A DNA stretch of 64,000 nt from an uncultured Chromatiaceae bacterium (GTDB lineage: Bacteria > Pseudomonadota > Gammaproteobacteria > DRLM01). The position numbers were made by a program, and so were the translations under genes. Numbering within the stretch: the stretch's first letter is position 1; each line of letters opens with the position of its first letter. Of the stretch, positions 17,422-56,220 are shown piece after piece. The stretch covers positions 532-64,531 of the forward strand of contig CALZJG010000137.1 of assembly GCA_945787555.1 (NCBI GenBank), read 5' to 3'. The notes beneath the pieces are model-generated. The model saw nothing but the letters and a program-made list of their open reading frames with translations, had not been told where the DNA came from and ran no database searches.

Positions 17422-20400
17422 TTACCCTAGCGGTTCGAACAGGCCCTCCAGGTCGTCCAATACGAGTTTGGAGGCACTATTGCCCGCTTCGTCGAACAAG
17501 CGATCCGCCAGCTCTTTCTTGCGCGCCTGCATAGCAAGGATCTTCTCTTCCACCGTGCCCTGGGTGATGAGTTTGTAAACGAACACGGCTTTGTCTTGGC
17601 CGATGCGGTGGGCGCGGTCGGTGGCCTGGGTCTCCACCGCAGGATTCCACCAAGGATCGTAGTGGATGACGGTGTCTGCAGCCGTGAGGTTGAGGCCCGT
17701 GCCGCCGGCCTTGAGGCTGATGAGAAACACCGGCACCTCGCCTTCCTGGAATTGTTCAATAGGCTTGGCACGGTTACGGGTGTTGCCGGTGAGTCGCACA
17801 TAGTCGATGCCGACACGGTCGAGTTCGGGTTCAATCAACGCGAGCATACTGGTGAATTGCGAGAACAGCAGAATACGCCGACCTTCTTCGACCAGTTCGG
17901 GCAACATATCCATGAGCAGTCCCAGCTTGGCGGAGTATTGCGCCTTCCTGGCGCTGGCCAGCTTGAGTAAGCGCGGGTCGCAACACACTTGCCGCAGCTT
18001 GAGCAGCGCCTCCAGGATCACGATGTGGCTGCGCGCCATGCCCTTCTTCTCGATCTCGTTGCGCACCTTCTTATGCATGGCCAGGCGGATGCTCTCGTAG
18101 AGGTCGCGTTGCGCACCGGACAGCTCGACCGCGTGCACCATCTCGGTCTTGGGCGGGAGCTCTTTGACGACCTCTTGTTTGGTGCGACGCAGCATGAAGG
18201 GCGCGACCCGCCTTCGCAGATTCACTTGCCGCATGCTATCACCATGCTTTTCGATCGGTGTGCGGAACAGCTTGCGAAAACGCCGTTCGTCGCCCAGCAG
18301 GCCGGGCAACAAGAAATCGAATAGCGCCCACATCTCGCCCAGGTGATTCTCCATCGGCGTGCCGGTGAGACATAAACGGTGCTTGGCATTGAGTTGGCGG
18401 ACGACCTGCGCGGCCTTGGCCTTGGAATTCTTGACCACCTGCGCCTCGTCGAGGATCAACAGATGATAGTCCTGATCGCTGAGCACGTTTTGGTCGCGAG
18501 ACAGCAAAGGATAGGTGGTAAGAACGAGGTCCGCGTCCTTGAGGCGCGCGTAGTTCTGTTTGCGTTCGGCGCCGTGTAGTACCAGCACGCTCAGATCGGG
18601 GGCGAAACGCTCAGCTTCCGTGCACCAGTTGGTCATGAGGCTCGTAGGGGCGATGACCAGGCTGGGGCGGTCCATGCGGCCGCTCTCTTTCTCCAGGAGC
18701 AGATGGGCCAGCGTCTGCACCGTCTTGCCTAGACCCATGTCGTCAGCGAGGATGCCGGCGAGTGCGTATTCACGCAGGAATTGCAGCCAGTCGAGGCCCT
18801 GGCGCTGGTAAGCGCGCAAGGCAGTGCGCAGTCCTGTGGGCGGGCTGACCTTTTGGATGCCCTGGAAGTCTTCGAGCTTGCGAGCAAGCTCGCGTAGACG
18901 CGTACTGCCCTCCCAGGCGACGTCGCGCAGATCTTGGATTTGTGCGACTTGCAGCGTGGGCAGGCGCAGGCGGCCATGATCGAGCTGGGTGTCATAGAGC
19001 TCGACCAAGGTGCCGAGGAAATTGCGCACGCGCTCGAAGGGGATGGGCAGTAATCGCTCATTGGGCAGGCGCACAAACATATTTTCTGGAGCCTGCTCGG
19101 CCGGCAGGCGCAAGAATTCCGCGAGCTCGGGATTCTGCGCGAGTATGTCCACCAGAATTGGCAGGAGATTGAGCCGCTCACCGTCAACGGTTACGCCCAG
19201 CTCTAGCGAGAACCAATCGTTACCGCTCTCTTCAAGCTCCGCGTACCAGTCGCCCGTCTCTTCAACCAGGCGATAAGGCCAGTCGTCGGCGATCTCGACT
19301 CGCCAGCCCTGACGGCGCAATTCCGGTACGCCGTGGAGACTGAAATTGAGGTGAGCATCATGGGGGTCCGCCTGCATTGGCATCAAAGTACGATCGTAGA
19401 CCTGCTCGGGTGTGGGCGCGAAATCTCTGAAATTGGACAGGGGCATGAATTCCAAGGCTTCGAGCGCCTCCATCGCGGCCTGCTCCGCCTTGGCATCGCG
19501 CCTGATCTGCACTAACCGCTCTCCCTCCAAACGAGTGAGATCGGGCTCCGACGTGATGCCCGGCACAACGCGGATACCGTCATAGTCAAAATCGAGCCGA
19601 GCGAGCGGGAACTGCACCGGCTTGCTAGCCGCCTTCCAGGCGTGGGGGCTGTGTCTGTTCGGCACCTCGGCCTGAAACAACCGGAGGCAAGGCACGGGCT
19701 TGACGCGCTTTTCGACGGCCGATTGAAAACGGCGCGGTTGTGGGATGGCGGCGCCCAACTTATCCAGCGCTTGCTGTACGCGTGGCACGTCGTCGGGATG
19801 CAGCGACGGGGACTCCAGCAGCGCTTGAGCCACGCTATCGGGCAGACCGGTGTTCAATGGGCCGCACTGATTGCGGCTAAGATCGACATACCAAGGGGGC
19901 GACAATGGCAGTACCTCGTCGACGTCCTCATCGCCCAAGCAGCGCAGGCGTTGCAGCCCATCGCGGGTCGCCACCCACTCCAGCTGTACCGTGCGCGGTT
20001 CGCCCAGCATCAAGGGCGGGCTCTTGATCGTGCGCCAATGACAACGCCCCGTCGCAATCAGTTCGCTGAGCAGCGATGGGCCTTCCTGGCCTTGCGGTCG
20101 TAGCCACCCGTGCTCCGAGCACAGTCCTATCCAACGCAGCAGGCGCTGATCCACGGCGCGGATGTAGCGGGCCGAGGAATGGGCCTTGACCTGGCCGCTG
20201 CGCGGCTGGCCCCAGCCACCGGTTTTGAGCCGGCGTGCAACCACCGTTCGAACGTCCAAGGCCGGCTGCCCCATGTCTTGACCGCGCAGCGAGAGGAGAT
20301 AGATCACGTAGTCCGGAACGTCCGCCGCCTCATCAGCGGCCGCGGTGTGGGTGGCCGCGTCTAGTCGTTCGAGCCAGCGGATCAGTCGGGGGTTTGCGGT

Positions 20401-41785: not shown

Positions 41786-42187
41786 TGTCATTTCGACTGA
41801 AAGGAGAAATCCTATTCCCGATGACACAGTAACCACCGGCCGTTCGGGATACTCTCCGGGCGTTGAGATTTCTCCCTGCGGCCGAAATGACAAGCAGTGC
41901 GGTCGAAATCACAATCGCTGCGGTCTCAATGACACCGGTACGATCAAAATCACCAGCGGTGATCACGTGGACGTCCTCCTAAGGAAGCTCTGAATAATTT
42001 CCTGATGTGTCATTTCGACCGTGGCGAGAAATGACAATTAATTTGAGTCTCCGTCACTATGCGCACCTTCCCGGTAGCCGTCATTCCGGTTGTCTCACAT
42101 TGCGTACATTTCCAGTGACTGTCATTTCGATCGACTGACATTGCGCACATGTGCCGTGGTTGTCGTTTCGACTGAAAGGAGAAATCC
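41786..42187. repeat. Cluster of at least 7 copies or half-copies of the GTCATTTCGACCGCAGGGAGAAATC terminal-inverted-repeat (MITE-like) family in both orientations; the first unit (41786-41892) is a complete ~107-bp element
   Basis: Left arm gtcatttcgactgaaaggagaaatcc (41787-41812), and inverted right arm agatttctccctgcggccgaaatgaca (41866-41892). Further arms: tgcggtcgaaatcaca (41898-41913), tgcggtctcaatgaca (41919-41934), the palindromic tgtcatttcgaccgtggcgagaaatgaca (42008-42036), gtcatttcgatcgactgaca (42121-42140) and ttgtcgtttcgactgaaaggagaaatcc (42160-42187). Confidence 0.75.
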
Positions 42188-42246
42188 TATTCTCACTCAC
42201 AGCACACAGACCGGCATATATAATAATTGACATTCGTAATGTCACT

Positions 42247-43083
42247 TTAACTGTTTATTATTAAGGTATTAACATCGTACCCTAGCCTGGCCACAGCACG
42301 CTGCCCGCGGAATCGCGCCGGGCTGTCGATGGCCCTCAACCGGGCCAAGTCATCAACCCGGCTTTCCACGTCCTTGATGGCCTTCTTAAGAAAAGATCTG
42401 AGATCGCTTTTGATATGTGGCGCCACTTGCTTGATCGGGATGTTCTTGAGCACACAGAAGATGGCCAGGGCATAGGTGACTTCTACCTCATCCAGCGCGC
42501 CCTTGCGCTCCATGGCCGGATTGCTGCAACTGCCGCATCCCACGGCGACCTTGGGACGGGCCGTATTCGCAAACATGATGCCGAAACCCAGGTAAACGCC
42601 TAACAGCTCCATCATGTGCGGCCACTGTTCTTGATCGCAGGGCGCCGGGCTTTGCGCCAGCGCGCCCAGATGATAAGCCAGCGCATGAGCGTAGTTGGCG
42701 ACCATGACGTTGGGATTGCCCACCTGCTGGGGTTCATACAACAGCGTCAATGCGGCGCCGTTCCCCGCTTCCAGACCCTGCATGACCTGCTGCATATTGG
42801 CCAGGGACTCCGCTGGCTGGTCAAATACGCGATGATTGACGATGCGGCAAGGGATGTACGCCAGACCCGCATATTTCTTGACGTGGTCAAGTATCAGCTG
42901 AGCCATCTCCTCCACGCTGTCGCCGTTGCCGGGAAAGCAGCGGTTCGACGGTTCGACCAGGATGGTCTCGTCAAAGAACACATCACTGCCAAAGTTCTGC
43001 AAGGCCCAGGTATAGCCGTCGAACAACCAGGCCGTGGCTGCTTCCGGGAGTAAATCAGGTTTCTTGAAGAATTTATCCAGCAT
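42247..43083 (-). CDS. Hypothetical protein, no recognisable domain
   Basis: 278-aa ORF with plausible coding statistics and a GCGSC cysteine cluster. No family could be assigned from sequence alone. Confidence 0.45.
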   Translation of the reverse strand: MLDKFFKKPDLLPEAATAWLFDGYTWALQNFGSDVFFDETILVEPSNRCFPGNGDSVEEMAQLILDHVKKYAGLAYIPCRIVNHRVFDQPAESLANMQQVMQGLEAGNGAALTLLYEPQQVGNPNVMVANYAHALAYHLGALAQSPAPCDQEQWPHMMELLGVYLGFGIMFANTARPKVAVGCGSCSNPAMERKGALDEVEVTYALAIFCVLKNIPIKQVAPHIKSDLRSFLKKAIKDVESRVDDLARLRAIDSPARFRGQRAVARLGYDVNTLIINS

Positions 43084-43195
43084 AGGGGCACACTACCGTT
43101 GGGGACGTGCAACGTGCACGACTTGAGCCCGCTGCTCCCAGTTCATCGGCGTCCAATGAACAGGGCATTGTCCATCCTGACCACAATAAACCTCT

Positions 43196-43741
43196 TCACC
43201 ACATCAAATCATCCGGAATTTTATAATCCGCGTAGGGATCATCGCCCTCCTGCTCTGGCTCGAACTCATGATCAGACAGGATAATGCACTGCGCGTCGCG
43301 CTGCTTGATCTTCTTCGCCACCGGCATCGGCACCAGCTCGTAGCCCTCATTCAATTTGGCGATCGCCAGACGGCCGGACATGAGATGTTTGTGTACCGTC
43401 TCTGACACGTAGAGGCGCTTGACCACATTGGCGTCGGCAAAGTTGTAAACAATATCGCCATCACGGTCTTGCACCCGATTGGTCTCGATCAACTGCCTGA
43501 CCTGAGCCGCGATGGCCTTGCGCTGCACTTCTTCTTGCTTCTGCTGGTTGAGCTGACGGTCGCGCTCCAGCTTTTCTGTCTGAGCTTGTTGCGCCAGCCG
43601 CTGCGCCTCGCTCAGCGGCTCGGGCGCACCCCGCTTGGTCTTCTGCTTCTGACTTCTATATTGCTTGTTCTTCAGCTGCTGCGCCTGGTTTTTATCAACC
43701 AGGCCACTTTTCTTCAGCTGCTCTAACAGGGAATTGCCCAT
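43196..43741 (-). CDS. DUF2058 domain-containing protein
   Basis: The internal start MGNSLLEQLKKSGLVDKNQAQQ is the canonical DUF2058 N-terminus. A Lys/Gln-rich low-complexity centre and the conserved C-terminal block (DIVYNFADANVVKRLYVSETVHKHL..G.LAI) are present. Confidence 0.6.
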   Translation of the reverse strand: MGNSLLEQLKKSGLVDKNQAQQLKNKQYRSQKQKTKRGAPEPLSEAQRLAQQAQTEKLERDRQLNQQKQEEVQRKAIAAQVRQLIETNRVQDRDGDIVYNFADANVVKRLYVSETVHKHLMSGRLAIAKLNEGYELVPMPVAKKIKQRDAQCIILSDHEFEPEQEGDDPYADYKIPDDLMW

Positions 43742-43783
43742 GGGTGTGCTCCGGGTGCCATGAATGAAAGAAGCTCTGATCAA

Positions 43784-43920
43784 TTGTCATTTCAACCGCT
43801 TACTTTGTCATTTCGACCGCAGGGAGAAATCTTAAGATGCAGATATTGCGCACAGTCCAAAGGTGACAGATTTCTCGCAAGCTCCCTGACTGAACTCGGG
43901 ACAAGGCTCGAAACGACAGC
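43784..43920. repeat. MITE-like element copy: two tandem 21-bp half-TIR units, conserved core, degenerate right arm
   Basis: ttgtcatttcaaccgcttact + ttgtcatttcgaccgcagggagaaatctt (43784-43833), then the core aagatgcagatattgcgcacag, then gacagatttctc (43865-43876) and ctcgaaacgacagc (43907-43920) as the inverted remnant. Confidence 0.7.
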
Positions 43921-43934
43921 TAGTCAGAGTCGCC

Positions 43935-44411
43935 CTAACGCACGTCCAGCAATTCCACGTCGAACACGAGAGTCGCATTGGGCGGGATCACCCCGCCCGC
44001 ACCACGCGCCCCATAGCCCAGCTCCGGGGGAATGGTCAAAGTGCGCTGTCCGCCCACCTTCATGCCCGCCACTCCCTCGTCCCAGCCCTTGATCACCCGG
44101 CCCCCGCCGAGGGGAAAATCAAACGCCTCACCCCGATCACGCGAGCTATCGAACTGCTCCCCTTTATGATCCGGCGCCGCCTCATCGAACAGCCACCCGG
44201 TATAGTGCACGGAAACCCGCTGCCCCGCCGTCACTTCCGCGCCTTCGCCAACAACCACATCCGTCTTGATCAATTCTGTCACGCCGCTCTCCTCTCTGTT
44301 GGAATCCACTGAATCGGAACAGGCACTCACCGCAAGGAGCAGCGTTGCCAACGCCATTGCCCAGGGCACAAAAAGAACACCGCGCATTATTCGTTGTCGT
44401 TCAGGTTTCAT
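43935..44411 (-). CDS. FKBP-type peptidyl-prolyl cis-trans isomerase lipoprotein
   Basis: Lipobox LLLAVSAC, and the FKBP domain signature ([12 protein letters not shown]......[71 protein letters not shown]). Confidence 0.8.
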
Positions 44412-44488
44412 GTGACACCTTATCATGCTGCGCCGCTTGCCCCATCAGGGACTGACCCCTGAAGGAGGTTCTGATTAATGGCATGATG

Positions 44489-44584
44489 TGTCATTTCGAC
44501 CGTCCCTTGGTCATTTCCGCCGTTCCCTTGGTCATTTCGACTGGAAGGAGAAATCTCAAGATGTCGATACTTCGCACGGACTGA
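44489..44584. repeat. MITE-like element copy: three tandem ~22-bp half-TIR units plus the conserved core
   Basis: tgtcatttcgaccgtcccttgg / tcatttccgccgttcccttgg / tcatttcgactggaaggagaaatctc, followed by aagatgtcgatacttcgcacggactga. The core aagATG.cGATA.TtCGCAC.G is conserved with the 43784 copy. The 3' end of the ORF at 44556-45068 lies inside this element. Confidence 0.7.
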
Positions 44585-45068
44585 AACAAGGCGCGACATG
44601 ACCATTAATCTGGACTTCCTTGAACTCATCCAGCCATCGATCCGCCCACCAATTAGCATTCGCCTCGGTATTCTTATGGCTGACCTGCCGCGTGTGGCTG
44701 AGAAAATGAAAACATTCATGCGCCAGGGTGTGCAGGGCGCATTCCTCCAGGTCCTCGAACACAAAGGTTTGCTCACCCGAATACCAACCCTGCTTGTGGC
44801 TATTGGATGGAATCCGCCCCCAATGCTGAAACACGATCGGCGGCGCCATCTCCACATTCACACTGGCCCGTATCCGGTAGCCTTTAAGCAATTCGTGTTT
44901 ATGTTGCCTGGAATAAACCGGGTAGGCGCAACAGCCATGCATCGCGTGATTCCTATTCAGGGGCAACAGCTTGATCCACTCCATGAGTGACACATCATAG
45001 CCGTCGAGCTTGTTCAATATAAAGCTCAGCACATGGGGCATGCCTACCTTGTCGATGACCTTAATCAA
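44556..45068 (-). CDS. Hypothetical protein with an HExxH motif (possible small SprT/DUF45-like zinc metallopeptidase fold)
   Basis: LAHECFHFLSHTRQV contains HExxH with a downstream His. The annotated start is TTG and the true start is uncertain (internal MPHVLSF possible). The stop codon is supplied by the repeat element. Confidence 0.4.
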   Translation of the reverse strand: MIKVIDKVGMPHVLSFILNKLDGYDVSLMEWIKLLPLNRNHAMHGCCAYPVYSRQHKHELLKGYRIRASVNVEMAPPIVFQHWGRIPSNSHKQGWYSGEQTFVFEDLEECALHTLAHECFHFLSHTRQVSHKNTEANANWWADRWLDEFKEVQINGHVAPCFSPCEVSTS

Positions 45069-45122
45069 TTTCTGCCCTTATACATTACCTGGAGCCAAAT
45101 CATTATAAATCGAGACTGACCC

Positions 45123-45158
45123 TGTTTTTGCTGTTTTTGCTGTTTTTGCTGTTTTTCG
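45123..45158. repeat. Perfect 9-bp tandem repeat (TGTTTTTGC) x3 plus TGTTTTTCG in the upstream region of the HExxH gene
   Basis: cctgtttttgctgtttttgctgtttttgctgtttttcgcc read directly from the sequence, ~55 bp upstream of the annotated start at 45068. Confidence 0.85.
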
Positions 45159-45565
45159 CCTTTGAGTACGTCTGTCTGCATTTACGACTCCGCATACATT
45201 TTCTTCAGCCACCGGTTGTCGTCCTCCCGTTCCTTAAGGCGCGCCATCAGCGATGACATGCTTACCCCAATTATTGGCCCGCTATTTGCGCAAGGTTGCT
45301 CTGCTCCTGCTGTGCTCTCGGCACAGCGCTGGTACCGACATGACGGCTTCGGTTTGTTTCAATATCGCCGGGGACTGACTGTCGCTGTAGCGTGATTTCT
45401 TCATACAAAATAGCCTGTTGCAGAATTATTAGAAGATTCTACTTTTGATTACAGCGGTGTTTCGGGGAGATGACCATCGCATGCCCGGTGTATGTGAGTA
45501 CTAAACTATACATATAAGCCTAGAGCTTGTATTGACGACCACGCGGCAACTGCTTAGGAGGTGAC

Positions 45566-45958
45566 ATGGACAACGTTGAAGCACTGCTAAAAACGGCGCT
45601 TGCAGAAGTCGAGCAGATGTTGAGCACCAAGACGGTGATTGGCGAGCCCGTCACAATTGAAGGCCATACCCTCATTCCATTAGTAAGCATCGGTTTTGGA
45701 TATGGTGCCGGGGGTGGCAGCGGCAAAGGTGACGATCCCATGAAGGGCGAAGGCGCGGGGGCAGGTACCGGCGGCGGTGGTGGCGTCAGACCGGTTGCAA
45801 TCATCATCATAAATAAGGACGGTGTGCGGGTAGAGTCCATCAAAGGTGGTGCGACCATCGCCTTTGAAAAGATCGGTGAAGCCATCGGCAAATGCATGGA
45901 AAGCCACACTCCGGGCAAAAGCGCAGAGAAGGGTGAAGGCAAACACGGGCCATGCTAG
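45566..45958 (+). CDS. GerW/YtfJ family protein (sporulation protein YtfJ-like, Gly-rich loop)
   Basis: VIGEPVTIEGHTLIPLVSIGFGYGAGGGSGKGD......GGGGGVRPVAIIIINKDGVRVESI matches the GerW/YtfJ pattern (vG.P..v.G.tiIPv.kvsFGfg.GGG......GGGGG...PvA.ivi..g.v....i). Confidence 0.6.
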   Translation: MDNVEALLKTALAEVEQMLSTKTVIGEPVTIEGHTLIPLVSIGFGYGAGGGSGKGDDPMKGEGAGAGTGGGGGVRPVAIIIINKDGVRVESIKGGATIAFEKIGEAIGKCMESHTPGKSAEKGEGKHGPC

Positions 45959-46548
45959 TTGTTTTACTCGGACTAGTTCTCGGCATCCTAATCCTTCTGG
46001 CGATGCCATTCGATGTGACCTTTCGTCTAACCAAGGATGACGGCGTCCGACTGCGCTTATCTATTGCCTGGGCGTTTGGCCTCCTGTCTAAGGAATTGGG
46101 CAAGACCACCGACAAGCAAGTTGCGGAGAAACCAAAAACCAAAAAAAGACGCCGTAAGCAAGCGCGAGCTGGCAAGGCTAAAGCCAAAGCGGCGATGGCC
46201 TTCATGCGCAGCCCAGGCATGCCCGCACGCTTACTAGGACTGGCGCGGAATATGTGGCGGCAATTACATGTTCGCCAGCTAAACCTGCACCTTACATTCG
46301 GACTGGATGACCCCGCCGATACTGGGCAACTATTCGGTGCACTGGCACCGGCCCTGATTCACACCGATCGATTGTCCAGACTTGATTGCCAGGTACGTCC
46401 GGATTTTTCACAGCCGATTCTGCTGGTAAACGGTGGTGGCCAGCTCCGGGTGATTCCCTTGACTATCATTGGCGTCATGATCGCCTTTTTTCTGTCACCT
46501 GCCTGCTGGCGGGCCTTTACCGCTGCCGCCAAGGCCAACCAATCATAG
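45952..46548 (+). CDS. DUF2953-like membrane protein (usual partner of GerW/YtfJ)
   Basis: N-terminal TM helix (MLVVLLGLVLGILILLAMPF). The layout, with a Lys/Arg-rich linker and a second C-terminal hydrophobic segment, is as in DUF2953 proteins, which are normally encoded beside ytfJ. It overlaps the GerW-like gene by 7 bp. Confidence 0.5.
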   Translation: MLVVLLGLVLGILILLAMPFDVTFRLTKDDGVRLRLSIAWAFGLLSKELGKTTDKQVAEKPKTKKRRRKQARAGKAKAKAAMAFMRSPGMPARLLGLARNMWRQLHVRQLNLHLTFGLDDPADTGQLFGALAPALIHTDRLSRLDCQVRPDFSQPILLVNGGGQLRVIPLTIIGVMIAFFLSPACWRAFTAAAKANQS

Positions 46549-46836
46549 AATCGATCGAGTCTGCCCGTATAGATTTCACTGATCTACTCAACAATAACGC
46601 ATCAAATGCGAGCTCGTATTGTCGGCGTCACATACTCTGAAGCCTTGCTTTCAGCCCCTAATGCCCTTACCCGCGATTTCACTCCTCCAGGTCGAATCGG
46701 CTGTGTGTTTGCGCGCAGCTCGTTGATGACGATGGCACCAGCGAGCAGTGGGCCTTGCCACTGTCTATGTCGGCGGCGCGAACTCCCGGCTTACCCTGCC
46801 CTCCGCCCGGGCTACATTTCCCCCTTCCCCGTCCTG

Positions 46837-46886
46837 TTGACATACCCGGATACTGTACATAAGATCAGTACTGTATATTTAATCAG
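46837..46886 (+). promoter_or_regulatory. SOS-type promoter of the imuA-imuB-dnaE2 cassette: sigma70 -35/-10 with two tandem LexA-box-like palindromes CTGT-N8-TCAG
   Basis: ttgaca (46837-46842), then 17 nt, then taagat (46860-46865). Box 1 is CTGTACATAAGATCAG (46853-46868), overlapping the -10. Box 2 is CTGTATATTTAATCAG (46871-46886). Both resemble the beta/gamma-proteobacterial LexA consensus TACTGT-N8-ACAGTA with one 3' half-site mismatch. imuA starts at 46943. Confidence 0.55.
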
Positions 46887-46942
46887 CCATCGGTGGGTAG
46901 CGTGCGCCAGAGCCAATAGCAGAGCCAACAGGGACAACCATT

Positions 46943-47593
46943 ATGAACACCGCCTTCGAATCCTTGCTCAATCATCCGCAGATTTGGCGCGGCCGGCGCC
47001 CGAGTTGGACGGATGCGGAGTCCATCGCCAGCGGCTATGCCGAGCTCGATGCGCAACTTCCCGGCGGCGGCTGGCCGCGCGGGACGCTCAGCGAAATCCT
47101 GCTGCCCCGGCCCGGCATCGGCGAGCTGCGTTTGCTGCTGCCCGCGCTGGCGCGTTTGCATGACGAAAAGAAATGGATCGCCTTGATCGCCCCGCCCTAT
47201 ATCCCTTATGCGCCGGCCTGGCAGGCCAGCGGTCTCGATCTCTCCCGTTTGCTATGGGTGCGCCCACGCGATGCCGCCGATCAGTTGTGGGCGGTCGAGC
47301 AGGCGTTGCGGGCCGGCACTTGCGGGGCGGTGCTTGCCTGGCCGGGCAGTACGCCCAGTTTCCAACAACTGCGCCGTCTGCAACTGGCCGCGGAGAGCGG
47401 CCGCAGTTGGGGGGTGTTGTTTCGCCCGCCCGCCAGCGCGGCGCAGCCGACGCCCGCATCGGTGCGCCTGCACATACAGGCCCACTCCCGCACGCTCGCC
47501 GTCCATCTGCTGAAACGCCGCGGTGCCTGGGCCGGCGAGCCGGTGCAGATCACGCTGCCCTTCCCCGCCGCACCAAGCGTCGTGCCCAGTTAA
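46943..47593 (+). CDS. imuA: ImuA, SOS-response translesion-synthesis-associated protein (RecA/SulA-like fold)
   Basis: 216 aa, first gene of a three-gene cassette whose second and third genes are clearly imuB and dnaE2. The conserved ImuA blocks W.G...S.G...LP.GG...G.L.E........GE..LLLPALA and the C-terminal ...RL.L...R.G are present. Confidence 0.7.
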   Translation: MNTAFESLLNHPQIWRGRRPSWTDAESIASGYAELDAQLPGGGWPRGTLSEILLPRPGIGELRLLLPALARLHDEKKWIALIAPPYIPYAPAWQASGLDLSRLLWVRPRDAADQLWAVEQALRAGTCGAVLAWPGSTPSFQQLRRLQLAAESGRSWGVLFRPPASAAQPTPASVRLHIQAHSRTLAVHLLKRRGAWAGEPVQITLPFPAAPSVVPS

Positions 47594-47617
47594 TCAATTT
47601 TATGAGCATGCGCTGTC

Positions 47618-49054
47618 ATGTTGTGGCTGTGTCTGTATTTTCCGCAATTGCCCTTGGAGATTTTTTCGCGCGTGGAAGCCACTGCCTCCCCCTGGATCAT
47701 CACCGAGGGTAAAGGCGCACGCCAAACCATCTTCCTGTGCAACGCGCTCGCCGCCTCGCTCGGCATTCGGCCCGGCATGTCGCCCGGGGCGGCTTATGCT
47801 TTGACCGCTACCCTGCGGGTACGCGCGCGCGATGCCGCCGCCGAGCGACAGGCGTTGGCGGCGCTCGCCGCTTGGGCGGGGCAGTTCACGTCGCTGGTCA
47901 GTCTGTCGCCGCCGCAGGCCCTGCTGCTGGAGATCGCCGGCAGTCTGGATTACTTCGGCGGCATCGACGCCTTGCTGCGGCGAGTGCGTCGCCGCGCCGC
48001 CCGGCTCGGTTATGTCGTTGAGTGGGCCGTGGCGCCCACGCCCTTGAGCGCCGAGGTGTTCGCGCGGGTGCCGCTCGCCGCGCCGGTGCTGCACGCGCAA
48101 GATCTCGCCGCCGCGCTGCGTGATGTGCCGCTGCCCCTGCTCGGCTTGGAGGACAAGCTGTTGCACGCGTTGCACGGCATCGGCACGCGTCATGTCGGCG
48201 ATGTGCTGCGCCTGCCGCGCGCCGATCTGGCGCGGCGTTGCGGTCCCGCCTTGATTGAATATCTCGATCGGCTGCTGGGACGGCGCAGCGATCCCCGCGC
48301 GCCCTATGTGCCGCCGCCGCGTTTCGAGCGCCAGCTCCCCTTACCTAGCGAGACGACAGACAGCGAGGCCTTGTTGTTTCCCGCGCGACGTTTGCTGCAG
48401 GAATTAGCCGGCTTTCTGATCGCCCGGCAGGCCGGCACCCAACAGTTGCAGTGGACACTGGCGCATCATCACCAGCCCGCGACGCTGATCTTGCAGGGTC
48501 TCGCCGCGCCCAACCGCGACCCGCCGCATTTGCTCAAACTATTGCGTGAGCGTTTGGCCCGCAGTTCGATCGAACATCCCGTTGAGGGCATCGCCTTACG
48601 GGTGACGGAGTTGCAGCCGCTGCGGCCGCACGCCCTAACGCTGGACGGCGAACGGGAAGCGCCCGCGCAAGACTGGCCGCAGCTAGTCGAAACCTTGCGC
48701 GCCCGCCTCGGCGATGAGGCGGTGCAGGGTCTGCAATGTCGCGACGACCACCGCCCGGAACAGGCCTGGCAAGCCAGCCCGCTAGGCAGCCGCGGCCCCG
48801 CGCTCTCCCACCTCGGCCGACCGTTGTGGTTGTTGCCCGAGCCCGTGAGTTTGCGCCATCGCGACGGCGCGCCTTACCTGGATGCGCCTTTGCATATCGA
48901 AGTCGGTCCGGAACGGCTGGAAAGCGGCTGGTGGGACGGTGGCGACATCACCCGCGATTATTTCATCGCCCGCGATGAGCGGCACAGCCGCTACTGGATT
49001 TTTCGCGAGCGGCGCGGTGAGCGGAGGTGGTTTCTCCATGGCTATTTCGCCTGA
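47618..49054 (+). CDS. imuB: ImuB, Y-family DNA polymerase-like protein without catalytic residues
   Basis: N-terminus MLWLCLYFPQLPLEIF is the signature ImuB start (MLWLaLhFP.LpLEvf). A UmuC-like palm/fingers region and a long C-terminal extension follow. It lies 25 bp after imuA. Confidence 0.8.
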   Translation: MLWLCLYFPQLPLEIFSRVEATASPWIITEGKGARQTIFLCNALAASLGIRPGMSPGAAYALTATLRVRARDAAAERQALAALAAWAGQFTSLVSLSPPQALLLEIAGSLDYFGGIDALLRRVRRRAARLGYVVEWAVAPTPLSAEVFARVPLAAPVLHAQDLAAALRDVPLPLLGLEDKLLHALHGIGTRHVGDVLRLPRADLARRCGPALIEYLDRLLGRRSDPRAPYVPPPRFERQLPLPSETTDSEALLFPARRLLQELAGFLIARQAGTQQLQWTLAHHHQPATLILQGLAAPNRDPPHLLKLLRERLARSSIEHPVEGIALRVTELQPLRPHALTLDGEREAPAQDWPQLVETLRARLGDEAVQGLQCRDDHRPEQAWQASPLGSRGPALSHLGRPLWLLPEPVSLRHRDGAPYLDAPLHIEVGPERLESGWWDGGDITRDYFIARDERHSRYWIFRERRGERRWFLHGYFA

Positions 49055-49115
49055 GGAGGTTTTGATTGATTGCACAGGCATGAACCTTACAGCGTAGGAC
49101 TGCCACGCAGGAGCT

Positions 49116-49173
49116 GTCATCTTGTCATCTCGACCGTAGCCGGTTTGTCATCTCGACCGCAGGGAGAGATCTT
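49116..49173. repeat. Left-end repeat block of the GIY-YIG element: tgtcatc plus two tandem ~23-bp half-TIR units ending cagggagagatctt
   Basis: ctgtcatcttgtcatctcgaccgtagc cggtttgtcatctcgaccgcagggagagatctt, ~35 bp upstream of the GIY-YIG start codon. Confidence 0.7.
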
Positions 49174-49208
49174 GTATTAAGGTGAAGCTTAATTCTGGAG
49201 AGATTGCC

Positions 49209-49532
49209 ATGCCCAAGGAGCAGCAATATTTCGTCTATCTCCTCACCAACTGGAACAACAAAGTCATGTACGTCGGCATGACCAACAACCTCGTTCGCCG
49301 CGTATACGAACACAAGAGCGAGGCGGTCAAAGGTTTTACGGAAAAGTACAAGGAACACAAGCTCGTGTACTTCGAGGAAACCTCAGACGTGCACGCTGCC
49401 ATCGCGCGCGAGAAGGAAATCAAACGCTGGCGACGGGAGAAGAAGAATGCGCTGGTCTTTCAAGGAAACCCCACATGGCGTGATCTCAGTGCAGACCTGG
49501 GCCTTCCATATCGTCATTTCGACCGGAGGTAG
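49209..49532 (+). CDS. Small stand-alone GIY-YIG nuclease family protein (COG2827/UPF0213-like)
   Basis: MPKEQQYFVYLLTNWNNKVMYVGMTNNLVRRVYEHKSEAVKGFTEKYKEHKLVYFEETSDVHAAIAREKEIKRWRREKK has the GIY...YVG motif, the R-x3-EH motif and the conserved K/E of GIY-YIG. A Shine-Dalgarno-like ggagag sits 8 nt upstream of the ATG (track ORF starts earlier at GTG 49182). The last 7 codons and the stop lie inside a repeat unit. Confidence 0.8.
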   Translation: MPKEQQYFVYLLTNWNNKVMYVGMTNNLVRRVYEHKSEAVKGFTEKYKEHKLVYFEETSDVHAAIAREKEIKRWRREKKNALVFQGNPTWRDLSADLGLPYRHFDRR

Positions 49533-49669
49533 TTTGTTATATCGACCGCAGCCGGTTTGTCATCTCGACCGCAGGAAGTTTGTCATCTCGACCGCAGGGA
49601 GAAATCTTAACGCCCCAGCATGTTCGAAACGCACGAAGTTCATCATGCAAATCCGCGCCAGATTTCTCC
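49511..49669. repeat. Right-side repeat block of the GIY-YIG element: four tandem ~23-bp half-TIR units, core, and partial inverted arm
   Basis: tcgtcatttcgaccggaggtag / tttgttatatcgaccgcagccgg / tttgtcatctcgaccgcaggaag / tttgtcatctcgaccgcagggagaaatctt (49511-49608), and the inverted remnant agatttctcc at 49660-49669. Confidence 0.75.
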
Positions 49670-49832
49670 TTTCACCCCCACCCTCCCCTTGTGAGGGGGG
49701 AGGAAAGATGTGGCACTCCACATGACCATCATTCAGCACTTGCCTGACTCGGGCTCTGATCCGGGGCCTGACCTCCAACTTAATTTATGCCAGTTTTCCA
49801 AGAGGCCATCGAGGACGATACGGCACTAGCAC

Positions 49833-52800
49833 ATGAGCGGAATATCACCATATCCCGAACCTAATCCGGCGCCTAATCTGGCGCCGAAATATGCCGAGCT
49901 GCATTGCCTCAGCAACTTTAGCTTTCTGCGCGGCGCCTCGCATCCGGGGGAACTGGTGCAGCGCGCCGCGCAACTGGGTTATCGCGCGCTGGCGCTCACC
50001 GACGAATGTACGCTGGCCGGGGTGGTGCGCGCCCATGTCGCGGCCCAGGCGCATGGCCTGCATCTGATCATCGGCGCGGAATTTAAACTGAGCGACGGTC
50101 CGCGTCTGGTGCTGCTCGCCAGCGATCGCGACGGCTACGGCAATCTCGCGCAATTGATTACTACGGCGCGGCGCGCGGCGGACAAAGGCACTTATCGGTT
50201 ATGCAGCGAGGATCTACGCGACGGCCTCGCCGGTTGTCTCGCTTTGCTGCTGCCCGACGCAGCGACCTCCGTGGCGCAAATGCGCGGCTTGGCGCAACGG
50301 TTCGAACAGCGTTGTTGGTTGCTCGTGGAACGATTGTTGGGTCCCGACGATCAGCACCATCTCGCGCGCTGCCGCGTCCTCGCCGCTGAACTGCAGTTGC
50401 CGCTGGCGGCGGCAGGCGATGTACACCTGCACGCGCGCGGGCGTCGCGCCTTGCACGACACGCTCACCGCTATTCGTTTGGGCTGCACGGTGGCCGAGGC
50501 CGGTTTGGCGCTGCATGCCAACGGCGAACGTCATCTGCGTCCGCGCGCGCGTTTGGGGCGCCTCTATCCTCCCGAGTGTCTCGCGGAAACGCTGCGCATC
50601 GCCGCGCGCTGCCGGTTTTCTCTGGCCGAATTGCGTTACGAGTATCCGCAGGAACTAGTGCCGCGCGGCGCCACGCCCGCCGGTCATTTGCGCCGTCTCA
50701 CTCTGGCGGGCATGCAGGAACGTTGGCCGGACGGCGCGCCGGAGAAAGTGCGTGACTTGGTCGAGCGCGAACTCCAGTTGATCGCGGAGCTACGTTACGA
50801 GCCGTATTTTCTCACCGTGCACGACATCGTGCGTTACGCCCGCAAGCGCGGCATTCTGTGCCAGGGACGCGGCTCGGCCGCCAACTCGGCGGTCTGCTAT
50901 TGCTTGATGATCACCGAGGTCGATCCGGCGCGCATGGCGATGTTGTTCGAGCGTTTTATCTCCAAGGAACGCAACGAGCCGCCCGACATCGACGTGGACT
51001 TCGAGCATGAGCGGCGCGAGGAAGTCATTCAATATATCTATGCCAACTACGGGCGCGAGCGTGCCGCTTTGGCGGCGACGGTGATCAGCTATCGGCCCAA
51101 GAGCGCGCTGCGTGACGTCGGCAAGGCCTTGGGCCTGGATCTCCAGCAGGTCGATAGCTTGTCGAAGTCTCTGGCCTGGGCTGACGGCAATCAAGTCGTG
51201 GCGGAGCGTTTGAGCGAACAGGGTTTTGATCCGCAGCATCCCTTGATCCGGCGTTGGTTGTTGCTCGCCAACACGTTGATCGGTTTTCCGCGCCATCTGT
51301 CGCAACATGTGGGCGGCTTTGTCATTTCGCACGGCCCGCTGTCGCGCCTGGTGCCGATCGAGAATGCGGCGATGGCCGAGCGCACCGTCATTCAATGGGA
51401 CAAGGACGATCTCGATGCGCTGGGTTTGCTCAAGATCGACGTGCTGGCGCTGGGCATGTTGAGCGCCATCCGTCGCGCCATCCAGTTGATCAACGCGTAT
51501 TACGGCAGTGAACTCAGCCTTGCAAGCATCCCGCCGGAAGAGGCGGCGGTCTATCGCATGCTGCAACGGGCGGATACCATCGGCGTGTTTCAGATCGAGT
51601 CGCGCGCGCAGATGGCGATGTTGCCGCGCCTCAGACCTAAGTGTTTTTATGATCTGGTTATCGAAGTAGCGCTGGTGCGGCCGGGCCCCATCCAGGGGCA
51701 GATGGTGCATCCCTATCTGCGCCGCCGCCAGGGACTGGAGCCGGTCAGCTATCCCAGCGCGGCGATACGCGGTGTGCTGGAACGCACGCTGGGCGTGCCT
51801 ATTTTTCAAGAGCAAGTCATGCAGGTTGCCATGGTGGCGGCCGGTTTTTCCGCCGGCGAGGCGGATCAGTTGCGCCGCGCCATGGCCTCGTGGCGGCGCA
51901 AGGGCGGACTCGGTCCGTTTCAACAACGTCTGCGCGACGGTATGCGGGCGCGCGGCTATGACGAGATGTTCGCCGAGCAGATCTGTCGTCAGGTGGAAGT
52001 CTTTGCCGAATACGGTTTTCCCGAATCGCATGCCGCCAGTTTCGCCTTGCTGGTGTATGTCTCGGCCTGGCTCAAATGCCATGAGCCGGCCGCCTTCTGC
52101 GCTGCGCTGCTCAACAGTCAACCGATGGGCTTTTATGCGCCGGCGCAGTTGGTGCAGGACGCGCGCCGCCACGGCGTGGAGATACGCCCGGTGGATGTGC
52201 AGTGCAGTGACTGGGACTGCACGCTGGAGCGCCCTGGTGCTGGTAGCGGCACTGGAGCTGGCAGCGGCCAGCCCACCCTGCGTCTGGGGCTGCGCATGGT
52301 GAAAGGTTTGTCGGCACTGGGTGGCGAGCGCGTGGTAGCCACGCGCCACAGCGCGCGGTTTAGCGATGTCGAGGACTTGGCGCGGCGCGGCGAGTTGACG
52401 CGGCGTGATCTCGATAGTTTGGCGCACGCCGGCGCGCTGGCCAGTCTCGCCAGTCATCGTCACTTAGCGCGTTGGCAGGTGCTGGGGGTGCGGCAAGCTA
52501 ACGATTTGTTGCAAGCCATGCCCATCGCCGAAGGCCGGCCGCTGCTACGCCGTCCCAGCGAAGGCGAAGACATCGTGGCCGATTACGGCCAACTGGGACT
52601 GACGCTGGGGCGGCATCCGCTGGCTTTGTTGCGGCCCCATTTGACGCGACGGCGTTTTATCAGTTCCGCATCGCTACACAGCTTGCCGAACGGACGCCGC
52701 GCGCGCGCCGCGGGCTTGGTCATCACCCGGCAACGACCGGGCACCGCCACCGGCGTTACTTTTCTCACGTTGGAAGATGAGTTCGGCACCATCAATGTCG

Positions 52801-52976
52801 TGGTGTGGAGCGATCTCGCCGAGCGCCAACGTGCCTTGGTGTTGGGCGGACGTTTGCTGGGCGTGAATGGCGTGATAGAAAAAGCCGACGGTGTGTTGCA
52901 TCTGGTGGCCGCGCGCTTGGAAGATCACAGCGCGTTGCTGGGCGGATTGGTTACCAGCTCAAGAGATTTTTGTTGA
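49833..52976 (+). CDS. dnaE2: Error-prone DNA polymerase DnaE2 (ImuC), alpha-subunit-like C-family polymerase
   Basis: 1047 aa with a PHP domain start ([23 protein letters not shown]), polymerase core motifs ([20 protein letters not shown]; [11 protein letters not shown]) and an OB-fold C-terminus. It is the third gene of the imuA-imuB cassette, separated from imuB by the 780-bp GIY-YIG/repeat insertion. Confidence 0.9.
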
Positions 52977-53020
52977 CCGTAGGTCAGGAGGCGTGTGAGT
53001 ACTCCCTGACATATACACCT

Positions 53021-53125
53021 GTCATTTCAACTGAAAGGATAAATCTAGCTCTGGGTCGCCTAGTGACCACCAGGCATTCGGGATGCTCTACGACGCTAAG
53101 ATTTCTCCCTGCGGTCGAAATGACA
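53021..53125. repeat. Complete 105-bp MITE-like element with 26/27-bp terminal inverted repeats
   Basis: Left arm gtcatttcaactgaaaggataaatct (53021-53046) and right arm agatttctccctgcggtcgaaatgaca (53099-53125). The internal sequence (gaccaccaggcattcgggatgctct) is conserved with the 41786-41892 copy (gaccaccggccgttcgggatactct). Confidence 0.8.
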
Positions 53126-55134: not shown

Positions 55135-55272
55135 AGCATAGCGCCGTCAGCATCATTCTTCCCGTCGCAGCGCCTCTGGAGACAGCCGGCATGGCGGCAA
55201 TTCTGCAAGGCGCTGGCCATGGCAGAAGACCACGAACGTTCCTATCGGTCGAGTTATCCCGGTTATCCCCTC

Positions 55273-56220
55273 TCAGCGTGCCGCTGCAGCCACGCCCGCA
55301 TCCTGCACGGCATCGGCCAGCGCCTCGCCCAGCAGTTCATGGACGCGCGAGGTAGGATGTATCTCGTCGAAGAAGACATAATTATTTATTGTAAACGGGT
55401 TGCAGGCGCCTAACGGATAGCTGGCCAGGCAAGCGTCTTGTGTGTTGATCAACCCTAGCGCGCCCGCATTCGCTATCCAGCCGTGCAAGGCGCTGAAGAA
55501 ATCGAACTCCTTGATATGGATCCCCAGACGGGCGCGGAGGCGATCGGCGCGACGGGTGAGTTCATGGTTATACACCCGTGTGAGCCAAGTGGCGGTAGCG
55601 GCCAGATGGCGTTTGCCGGTTTCATGTGCCAAACGTCGGGTTTCCGGTAGGAGGCCGATGTCCGGGACATTCACGAGCAGGAAGTGGCGGGCGCCGGCCG
55701 CCGTGAGGGCGCGTATGGCACTGGCCTCCACCAGTACAGCGAAACGCACCTTCAGCCAGGCGGCGAAGAGATTGCGCGCATCGCGGGCCGCCCGCACATC
55801 ATTTCCGCCGATGAATACGACATAAAGGGCATCGGGGTCGGCGACACCGCCCACATTGCTCAGGTAGGCCGCCACCTGCGCCAATAAGTCTTGCGGCTCA
55901 AAGTCCCCGGCCTCAGCGCCAACCACGGCATAGTTGGTGCCGACCGCTGCGCCAATAAAATGTAGCGAGGCCTGGGCGCTCAGGCCTAGCCTCTCTGCGA
56001 GCACTTCGACCGCCACCGGCCCATTGGTAGCGCGCGTCTGCCCGAAAAAGGGCGGATCGGGAGGTCGCTGATCGGGCGGCACCAAGGATGCCGCGTTGCC
56101 GACATCGGAAAGGCTGTCGCCCTTCACGAACAGTTGCGAGTACGGTCCCGCCGCGTAGGCGACGGACGCCAACAACAGCATGCTCAACAGGGTGAAGCGA
56201 GCGAGATAGGTTCGGAACAT
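55273..56220 (-). CDS. Secreted SGNH/GDSL-family lipase/acylhydrolase
   Basis: Signal peptide MFRTYLARFTLLSMLLLASVAYAAGP, the catalytic GDSLSD block (FVKGDSLSDVGN), a GGND block (VVFIGGNDV) and a C-terminal DxxH (FFDEIHPT). Confidence 0.75.
   Translation of the reverse strand: MFRTYLARFTLLSMLLLASVAYAAGPYSQLFVKGDSLSDVGNAASLVPPDQRPPDPPFFGQTRATNGPVAVEVLAERLGLSAQASLHFIGAAVGTNYAVVGAEAGDFEPQDLLAQVAAYLSNVGGVADPDALYVVFIGGNDVRAARDARNLFAAWLKVRFAVLVEASAIRALTAAGARHFLLVNVPDIGLLPETRRLAHETGKRHLAATATWLTRVYNHELTRRADRLRARLGIHIKEFDFFSALHGWIANAGALGLINTQDACLASYPLGACNPFTINNYVFFDEIHPTSRVHELLGEALADAVQDAGVAAAAR

Follow-up and report, generated by a model that had tools for sequence, protein, structure and literature searches.

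A hairpin repeat family around an SsnA-like GIY-YIG nuclease gene in an uncultured Chromatiaceae bacterium: probable members of the Ssn-related motif class

The hairpin repeats dispersed over positions 41787-53124 of a 64-kb window of DNA (64,000 nt, the whole stretch analysed here) from an uncultured Chromatiaceae bacterium are very probably Ssn-related motifs, a class that takes in the NTS/dRS3 repeats of Neisseria and the repetitive extragenic palindromic sequences (REPs) known as "CGTC/TGTC-tagged", and their cognate enzyme is very probably the small GIY-YIG nuclease whose gene (hereafter ssn) lies at 49209-49532; we place the probability of this reading at about 0.82. It is built on the anatomy of the repeats, the covariation of their base pairs, the linkage of gene and repeats in other genomes, the homology of the protein to SsnA and an insertion that is visible by comparison with relatives. 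A first-pass annotation had described the repeats as a family resembling miniature inverted-repeat transposable elements (MITEs) and matching no known repeat family, and had left unlinked the GIY-YIG gene inside the interval it flagged. The repeats flank this gene, whose product matches SsnA with E 4e-25, and the family belongs to the CGTC/TGTC-tagged REP superfamily (PMC3733652) and to the NTS/Ssn-related-motif class (PMC11893778); a match to an already described family is what the annotation had itself named as the outcome that would speak against its claim, and such a match was found.

The repeated unit, TGTCATTTCGACCGnAGGGAGAAATC, is an oriented hairpin, in which a GTC tag precedes a stem of 5 bp, followed inwards by an invariant tandem G·A, an inner stem of 2 bp that covaries, and a loop of the form GNA. 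The full unit of 25 nt reads GTC-ATTTC-GA-CC-GNA-GG-GA-GAAAT-C, with the general form (Y)GTC-ATTTC-GA-NN-GNA-NN-GA-GAAAT-C. Its stem, ATTTCGACC/GGGAGAAAT, has nine positions of which two are G·A, the loop measures 3 nt (GNA), or 5 nt without counting the closing pair, and the tail consists of a C followed by TTA, CTA or TCA. Window copies start with TGTCAT, CGTCAT or GGTCAT and end in ...GAAATC or ...GAGATC, and longer variants, represented in the window at 43869-43917 and 49661-49726, keep ATTTC-GA...GA-GAAAT with hairpins of 4-10 bp replacing the 2-bp inner stem.

Covariation was assessed on 359 instances, found in the window and in loci retrieved elsewhere. They represent 66 distinct sequences, of which 65 were aligned for pair counts, and the pattern used to collect them put no constraint on the GA positions, the inner seven bases or one outer pair. 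GA stands opposite GA in 354 of the 359 instances and the loop is GNA in 296, while the inner-stem pairs are CC/GG (235), GC/GC (51), CT/AG (28), AC/GT (12) and AT/AT (2), and a T:A pair of the outer stem has become C:G on both sides 23 times. Among the distinct sequences, paired cells amount to 96.3%, compared with 87.4% in shuffles (none of 500 reached the observed value) and 18-63% when the partners were slid, and 37 cells are changed on both sides where 9.8 were expected. Across the 65 distinct units G1, T2, C3 and T5 are invariant and A4 is present in at least 90%, an invariance that is partly built in because the collecting pattern fixed G1-C3 and restricted A4 and T5; the C25 that follows the stem, invariant in alignment A2, was likewise fixed by the pattern and therefore provides no independent test of the 3' cytosine. 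Since GA opposite GA is non-palindromic, a symmetric duplex binding site would not explain it; it would fit tandem sheared G·A pairs in a folded single strand, formed by the GTCAT strand only. Tandem sheared G·A pairing is established nucleic-acid chemistry, which is applied to these repeats by inference.

Within the window, the core GTCATTTCGACCG with up to two mismatches is matched 22 times against 1.57 expected, none of 100 shuffles reaching 22, and 20 of the 22 matches fall at 41787-53124; the sites are mostly intergenic, and the dispersed family reported by the first-pass annotation is real. A repeat finder returned a 29-nt unit in 8 copies and a 23-nt tandem unit across 49122-49608, and a tolerant scan yielded 12 full hairpin units, compared with 0-3 per shuffled window, together with about 11 orphan 5' half-units and no orphan 3' half. 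The full units, all inside 11.4 kb, start on the plus strand at 41787, 42009, 42162, 43807, 44531, 49147, 49582 and 53021 and lie on the minus strand at 41867-91, 43869-917, 49661-726 and 53100-124; the unit copies have diverged to 63-92% identity and are distributed across six separate intergenic gaps. The inverted arms that had been reported for two units of ~105 bp were confirmed (I10, 34 nt and 79% complementary, at 41786-41892; I19, 27 nt and 81%, at 53020-53125), as was their common internal segment (D3, 75% over 75 nt), and the description of small, apparently non-autonomous units with foldable inverted arms was upheld.

The ssn gene (49209-49532, plus strand) lies between the full unit at 49147-49171 and the array and full unit at 49512-49606, and encodes a 107-aa single-domain GIY-YIG protein homologous to Neisseria SsnA. 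Pfam GIY-YIG matched residues 15-88 of a 116-aa reading with E 9.4e-16 and no other domain was found, while BLASTP against the 94-aa SsnA orthologue of N. gonorrhoeae gave 38% identity over 92 aa ungapped with E 4e-25, the homology threshold for SsnA in PMC11893778 being E < 1e-10. The comparator was the gonococcal open reading frame (ORF) from NZ_CP119140.1; this 94-aa ORF has Y6, Y17 and E64, and canonical NTS repeats flank the gene. Residues Y10, Y21 and E68 of the window protein align with Y6/Y17/E64, the residues mutated in PMC11893778, and the catalytic Tyr/Tyr/Glu is kept in 27 of 28 aligned metagenomic homologues, that of L179 being truncated to 7 residues. The best relative in PDB, UPF0213 protein BH0048, is a weak one (E 0.017), with no solved structure of a close relative, and NCBIfam contains no specific model, the best match being a group I intron endonuclease model below its cut-off. 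The last seven codons and the stop of ssn (...YRHFDRR*) are encoded by CGTCATTTCGACCGGAGGTAG in the first downstream half-unit. NZ_CP119140.1, from which the ssnA locus and NTS sequences were taken, has 2.17 Mb and is a chromosome of Neisseria gonorrhoeae that PLSDB lists among its plasmids.

Chenal et al. (Nat Commun 2025, PMC11893778) describe the NTS of Neisseria, CGTCATTCCCGCGMAVGCGGGAATCYRG, as dRS3 extended into an oriented site, which SsnA, a 94-aa single-domain GIY-YIG protein (cd10448), binds as single-stranded DNA (ssDNA) only and cuts a few nt upstream of the GTC tag. Cutting depends on the tag, binding most critically on the C behind the stem, and hairpins with extended loops or split halves are still cleaved (PMC11893778). 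In the same study ssnA homologues across phyla are flanked by "Ssn-related motifs" (SRMs), and the NTS-ssnA-NTS layout is likened to that of an insertion sequence (IS). The Ssn system of Neisseria restricts the recombination of incoming ssDNA. The window unit TGTCATTTCGACCGCAGGGAGAAATCTTA aligns position for position with NTS, and the published tolerance for loop extensions matches the variable inner hairpins of the window. In both systems the hairpin is oriented, carries a (C/T)GTCAT tag on its 5' side with a C directly behind the stem, and is present in multiple intergenic, clustered copies and in inverted pairs; both also show the hairpin-ssn-hairpin architecture with a single-domain GIY-YIG partner of ~100 aa in which Tyr/Tyr/Glu is conserved. 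They differ in that the window stem, closed by a GNA loop of 3 nt, includes the invariant tandem G·A, whereas that of Neisseria is an 8-bp Watson-Crick stem with a 4-nt loop, and in that the window host is uncultured and probably gammaproteobacterial, whereas Neisseria is a competent pathogen.

The CGTC-tagged REPs, whose tag is often TGTC and may also be CCTC, were described in five phyla as mostly inverted dimers with stems of 8-9 bp opening A-T, T-A; they include Neisseria dRS3 and Rickettsia RPE-4/RPE-6 and have no dedicated transposase (Di Nocera, De Gregorio & Rocco, BMC Genomics 2013, PMC3733652). The window repeats resemble them in the CGTC/TGTC terminal tag, the nine-position stem opening A-T, T-A, the short unpaired tail, the inverted dimers, the occurrence in several phyla and the lack of an associated transposase, and differ from them in the tail (C followed by TTA or CTA instead of CCA), in two non-Watson-Crick stem positions and, where the loop is counted as the 3 nt of GNA, in having a loop shorter than 4-5 nt. 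A GIY-YIG partner of these repeats was not known in the 2013 paper (PMC3733652).

Gene and repeats are linked well beyond this genome. In a sample of 80 metagenomic loci (L120-L199) encoding homologues with 63-85% protein identity, a hairpin of the same type is found at most 200 nt upstream in 61 of 79 and at most 250 nt downstream in 63 of 75, with 49 loci having it on either side of the gene; the downstream one is mostly on the minus strand. In the usual arrangement, the upstream plus-strand hairpin ends 1-2 nt before the first aligned ssn codon, as in about 17 of the 80 loci by a count from offsets (for examples of the layout see L012 3890-3930, L128 and L151), so that its GGGAG would serve as a ribosome-binding site, and many homologue ORFs run into the downstream repeat and take their stop there, resulting in tails such as ...PCHSDQ (three times in L128) and ...DFSLRSK*. 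A one-genome-per-species scan with GTCATYTCGACYGNARGGAGARATC found the 25-nt pattern in at least 119 genomic stretches from many phyla, which means that this is not a genome-specific family. Among the matches listed, most were inverted pairs with lineage-specific spacers, and the hosts included Flavobacterium and other Bacteroidota, Ignavibacteria, Desulfobacterota, Anaerolineae, Riflebacteria, Nitrospirales and Gammaproteobacteria. Linkage of ssn to imuB/dnaE2, its neighbours in the window, was not found at other ssn loci, a tblastn search of 50,697 phage records gave no match, and a literature search for the exact motif returned only unrelated primer matches. Two short contigs (L039 and L052) binned into the Candidatus Bathyarchaeota metagenome-assembled genome HYP3_US_13_22 carry the 25-nt hairpin as an inverted pair, which could reflect mis-binning or transfer.

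When single-stranded, the full unit would be expected to fold, on the GTCAT strand only, into a 5-bp A/T stem, two sheared G·A pairs, an inner stem of 2 bp or longer and a GNA loop, and the GTC tag and the C after the stem would orient the site. By homology with SsnA, the window Ssn would bind this folded ssDNA hairpin and cut it a few nt 5' of the GTC tag, and it may play a role in spreading or maintaining the repeats. The preferred mechanism of spread would be nick-stimulated copying or repair between hairpin-bearing sites, which would also account for the local clustering and for the half-unit duplications. The organisation in the window consists of inverted pairs similar to REP doublets forming hairpins (REPINs) and to bacterial interspersed mosaic elements (BIMEs), of 5' half-unit arrays placed before a full unit, and of one autonomous-looking hairpins-ssn-hairpins unit between imuB and dnaE2.

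Several observations weigh against this interpretation. The published SRM search string, HGTCWYN(0-2)YYVSBRHN(0-5)WNVSBRGN(0-2)RNCYNB, matches none of the 12 full units (it has 2 unrelated matches in the window, 0.43 being expected), because it demands S and B where the present subtype has A, at the G·A positions; the shortcoming is in the string used for searching, not in the concept. Loci L001-L119 were gathered with a pattern that restricted the inner stem, whereas L120-L199 were found via the protein and are free of such bias. Nearest-neighbour folding of a single arm as DNA is weak (-2.6 kcal/mol, z -0.75), with parameters that give no credit to sheared G·A pairs or GNA loops, so that the structural case rests on covariation. 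A relative from an independent assembly, GCA_947259935.1, which is 99.58% identical over 9.7 kb ungapped, has exactly the same units, and there is therefore no sign of recent movement; its hairpins differ by at least 3 substitutions in ~315 bp of repeat sequence, which is indistinguishable from the background of 0.42%. Nor is strand-transfer chemistry known for a GIY-YIG nuclease, and the proposed mechanism of spread is therefore a conjecture. Elsewhere in the window, CGTCATCCACTACGATCCTTGGTGGAATCCTG at 17640-17671 (minus strand) matches the SRM string as a different-looking hairpin subtype inside a 1098-aa ORF, a match that may be due to chance.

Among other explanations, a classical MITE, derived by deletion from a DDE-type insertion sequence and moved in trans via its terminal inverted repeats, is suggested by units of ~105 bp with inverted ends of 26-34 nt beginning TGT...ACA and several paralogous copies with a conserved interior. 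No target-site duplication was found at 41786/41892, 53020/53125, 41981/42056 or 44462/44621, however, and there is no transposase among the searched ORFs of 40-55 kb nor any adjoining the repeats, the only gene with the same ends being ssn; each arm is moreover a structured hairpin of its own, which shows covariation and has an invariant G·A motif that is not a palindrome, and the same 25-nt arm recurs across phyla with unrelated spacers, all of which leaves this explanation with little probability. Mobilisation of GTAG-type REPs or REPINs by a REP-associated tyrosine transposase (RAYT), similar to those of IS200/IS605, is even harder to accept. Like REPIN-RAYT systems and BIMEs, the window has single-strand hairpin repeats, intergenic and clustered, in inverted doublets that look non-autonomous, and a single small nuclease gene flanked by repeats, for which domestication is possible; the tag is (Y)GTC and not GTAG, the flanked gene encodes a hydrolytic GIY-YIG nuclease and not a Y1/HUH transposase with a covalent intermediate, and no RAYT was found in the window region examined. 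The mobility of REPINs has been demonstrated, unlike that of the window elements. For CGTC-tagged repeats, a study of 2013 found no RAYT association (PMC3733652).

An explanation at the level of RNA, in which the DNA repeats are kept for transcript processing as intrinsic terminators, mRNA 3'-end stabilisers, a small RNA or a tiny ORF, can appeal to the position of the copies at gene ends, to the Shine-Dalgarno-like 3' half GGGAGAAATC, located just before ssn in the ~17 of 80 loci mentioned above, and to two copies followed by ATG-initiated ORFs of 7-9 codons. The latter adjoin a second core at 43837 and 44561, already noticed in the first-pass annotation, which is real (D5, 79% over 68 nt); the tiny ORF suggested there (MQILRTVQR / MSILRTD) was rejected, as its ATG is missing from the homologous spacers of the other three units, at 41786, 49582 and 53021. 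The terminator-proximal placement claimed for the repeats was not borne out either: there are no T-tracts and none of the terminator-like sites coincides with a repeat, terminators and promoters in the window occur at chance level with none on the repeats, and Rfam at gathering thresholds found nothing in the whole window, a search of 41.5-53.5 kb at E up to 1 returning only a plant miRNA (E 0.43, reflecting the long inverted repeat) and a group II intron fragment (E 0.94). The repeats occur in both orientations relative to the neighbouring genes, and SsnA does not bind RNA (PMC11893778). Taken as the main explanation this is improbable, although a secondary effect of the repeats on ssn translation or on transcript ends is possible. 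A tRNA search of the window found none, and the region is therefore not a tRNA-linked island. As for a local duplication artefact or an assembly error confined to the 11-kb stretch, which the confinement of all full units to 11.4 kb and the end of the relative's contig near 45.5 kb might suggest, its probability is close to nil: the copies are diverged and lie in six separate gaps, GCA_947259935.1 reproduces the units base for base, a few substitutions aside, and the motif is present in hundreds of unrelated contigs. The contig of this relative (L204) begins at the equivalent of window position ~45483, just to the right of the repeat-rich 41.7-44.6 kb, and a repeat-caused assembly break is possible there.

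Returning to the Ssn-related motifs, evidence of past insertion is found at the ssn locus itself, where a composite ssn element of ~695 bp (49055-49747, plus strand) comprises, in this order, an outer module, a half-unit, a plus-strand hairpin, ssn, three half-units, a second plus-strand hairpin, a spacer, a degenerate minus-strand hairpin and an inverted outer module. The element fills the gap between imuB (47618-49054), preceded by imuA (46943-47593), and dnaE2 (49833-52976). In the two nearest retrievable relatives (L201 and L202, ImuB 71-72% identical) imuB and dnaE2 overlap by 17-50 nt, and neither ssn nor a hairpin was found in 21 kb. The ancestral dnaE2 start, an ATG at 49038, is still visible before the element, dnaE2 now starting at 49833 with a different N-terminus, and GCCTGA can be read at both borders of the element (49049-54 and 49742-47) as one possible duplication. 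The overlap in the relatives, together with the old ATG and the GCCTGA at the borders, indicates that the ~695-bp ssn unit was inserted. The mobility that the label "MITE-like" of the first-pass annotation implies thus has indirect support at most, from one insertion inferred with respect to distant relatives; the 99.6%-identical relative shows neither gain nor loss.

A more far-reaching and tentative idea, which we consider possible but doubtful, is that the hairpin-ssn-hairpin unit with its inverted outer modules is an autonomous mobile element, the ssn nuclease spreading both this unit and the ~105-bp doublets through nicks made beside hairpins extruded in ssDNA and followed by copy-repair, in a homing-like manner without a transposase, with the half-unit arrays as footprints. 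The insertion between imuB and dnaE2, the asymmetry of the arrays described below, the clustering around ssn and the near-identical hairpins in many phyla are all compatible with it. If true, this would supply the "missing mobilising enzyme" for the CGTC-tagged REPs noted in 2013, and the resemblance to an IS remarked on in 2025 would become a new mechanism by which DNA moves.

The half-units consist of TGTCATTTCGACC plus 6-10 variable nt with a period of 17-24 nt, and every 5' half keeps all the bases that pair with the single 3' half. In the window, every orphan 5' half precedes a full unit of its own strand, with a spacing of 20-23 nt, and the halves form arrays at 49512-49606, 44489-44555, 43785-43831 and 41867-41934 (minus strand); others were found in L046, L128, L141, L143 and L166, and one-sided 5' half-unit arrays are present in 19 loci, the window included. 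Over all loci, an orphan 5' half lies within 45 nt upstream of 26 of 330 full units, mostly at 19-22 nt, and downstream of none, whereas the rare orphan 3' halves are divided evenly between the two sides (5 each). As loop extensions are reportedly tolerated, we infer that the 3' half could pair with any 5' half of the array; slippage of the nascent GTCAT strand at the hairpin would likewise be compatible with the asymmetry. Half-unit arrays and the outer module are unmentioned in the main text of PMC11893778, where the word "tandem" does not occur.

What this adds to published work is modest, extending the known picture without changing it: a G·A subtype missed by the search string, the one-sided half-unit arrays, and the insertion between imuB and dnaE2. 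The subtype, GTCATTTCGA-stem-GAGAAATC with tandem G·A and a GNA loop, is widespread, from Bacteroidota to Desulfobacterota, Chloroflexota, Nitrospirota and Gammaproteobacteria, and published SRM counts probably underestimate the family, because the string used does not detect it. The ssn unit provides a natural example of insertion into the conserved operon imuA-imuB-dnaE2, and the one-sided arrays may inform on the multiplication of such repeats. For annotation purposes, the repeats and the "GIY-YIG nuclease family protein" at 49209-49532 should be described together as an Ssn/hairpin system and not as a new MITE next to an unrelated hypothetical gene.

With regard to the individual elements, inverted pairs with a 50-60-nt spacer are located at 41786-41892, 43806-43918, 44530-44603, 49581-49726 and 53020-53125 (five, plus one collapsed), and their spacers are recognisably paralogous. 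The loci at 43784-43920, 44489-44603 and 49581-49726, where the first-pass annotation had listed partial or rearranged units, are in fact inverted pairs whose second arm has a longer or degenerate inner hairpin. The outer module, AAGGARGYTCTGATYAAT, is found in 5 copies against 0.09 expected, outside the hairpins and in inverted pairs, and bounds the three units at 41981-42056, 44462-44621 and 49053-49747. As a family-wide feature the module AAGGAGGYTCTGATYAAT was rejected, AGGAGG being present in 3% upstream and 3% downstream of hairpins in other lineages; since it is unenriched there, it is a lineage-specific feature, which L017 shares.

The leftmost pair (41786-41892) consists of a plus-strand arm at 41787-41811 with the inner stem CT/AG and a minus-strand arm at 41867-41891 with CC/GG, separated by the conserved spacer, and folds as DNA with -18.8 kcal/mol (z -2.46); upstream of its minus-strand unit are two 21-nt 5' half-units on the minus strand (41900-41934, at 41900 and 41921). 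It is followed by the collapsed unit at 41981-42056 (-6.6 kcal/mol, z -3.2), in which an outer module (41981-41998, plus strand) is followed by the palindromic hairpin TGTCATTTCGACCGTGGCGAGAAATGACA (42008-42036) and, at 42037-42056, by a weak inverted module; the palindrome noted earlier at 42008-42036 is now interpreted as a collapsed pair instead of a hairpin formed by one arm. At 42120-42186 (plus strand) a half-unit at 42120-42133 precedes a full unit at 42162-42186 with the inner stem CT/AG, whose downstream spacer is truncated and without a partner arm. This 41.8-42.2 kb cluster resembles the NIMEs of Neisseria, intergenic mosaics in which dRS3-type hairpins bracket short repeat segments, but its intervening segments are unrelated in sequence to the Neisseria RS elements. 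NIMEs are also mentioned in PMC3733652.

Further along, the unit at 43767-43918 contains an outer module (43767-43784), a half-unit (43785-43798), a full unit (43807-43831, plus strand), a spacer and a partner arm with a long inner hairpin (43869-43917, minus strand), and that at 44462-44621 an outer module (44462-44479, plus strand), half-units at 44489 and 44509, a full unit (44531-44555, plus strand), a spacer, a degenerate arm at about 44585-44603 (minus strand) and an outer module at 44604-44621 (minus strand). Around ssn, an orphan 5' half-unit (49123-49136, plus strand) lies 23 nt upstream of the full hairpin GTCATCTCGACCGCAGGGAGAGATC (49147-49171, plus strand), which carries a compensated T:A to C:G change in its outer stem. 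Downstream of the gene, three 23-nt 5' half-units (49512-49571, plus strand, at 49512, 49535 and 49558) lead into the full hairpin at 49582-49606 (plus strand), which forms an inverted pair with a degenerate minus-strand arm with a long G/C-rich inner hairpin (49661-49726). The pair downstream of dnaE2 (53020-53125, z -2.97), with a degenerate arm at 53021-53045 (plus strand) and a canonical one at 53100-53124 (minus strand), is paralogous to that at 41786-41892.

Two ORFs end within repeats, as had been observed before: the GIY-YIG ORF at 49532 and an ORF at 44556-45068 (minus strand) encoding 170 aa with the HExxH-type motif LAHECFHFL. The latter has a coding-like pattern of GC by codon position and no Pfam or NCBIfam match, and since it runs into the repeat element for its final ~19 codons and takes its stop there, the insertion of the repeat probably replaced its original end. 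Between this ORF and a YtfJ-like gene, about 4 copies of the perfect tandem 9-mer CTGTTTTTG are found at 45122-45156. Outside the repeat region, a segment of about 1 kb (55200-56217) with a GDSL-lipase gene (55273-56220, minus strand) is missing from the relative's contig L204, where the two BLAST alignments meeting at the junction overlap by ~10 nt, with no transposase.

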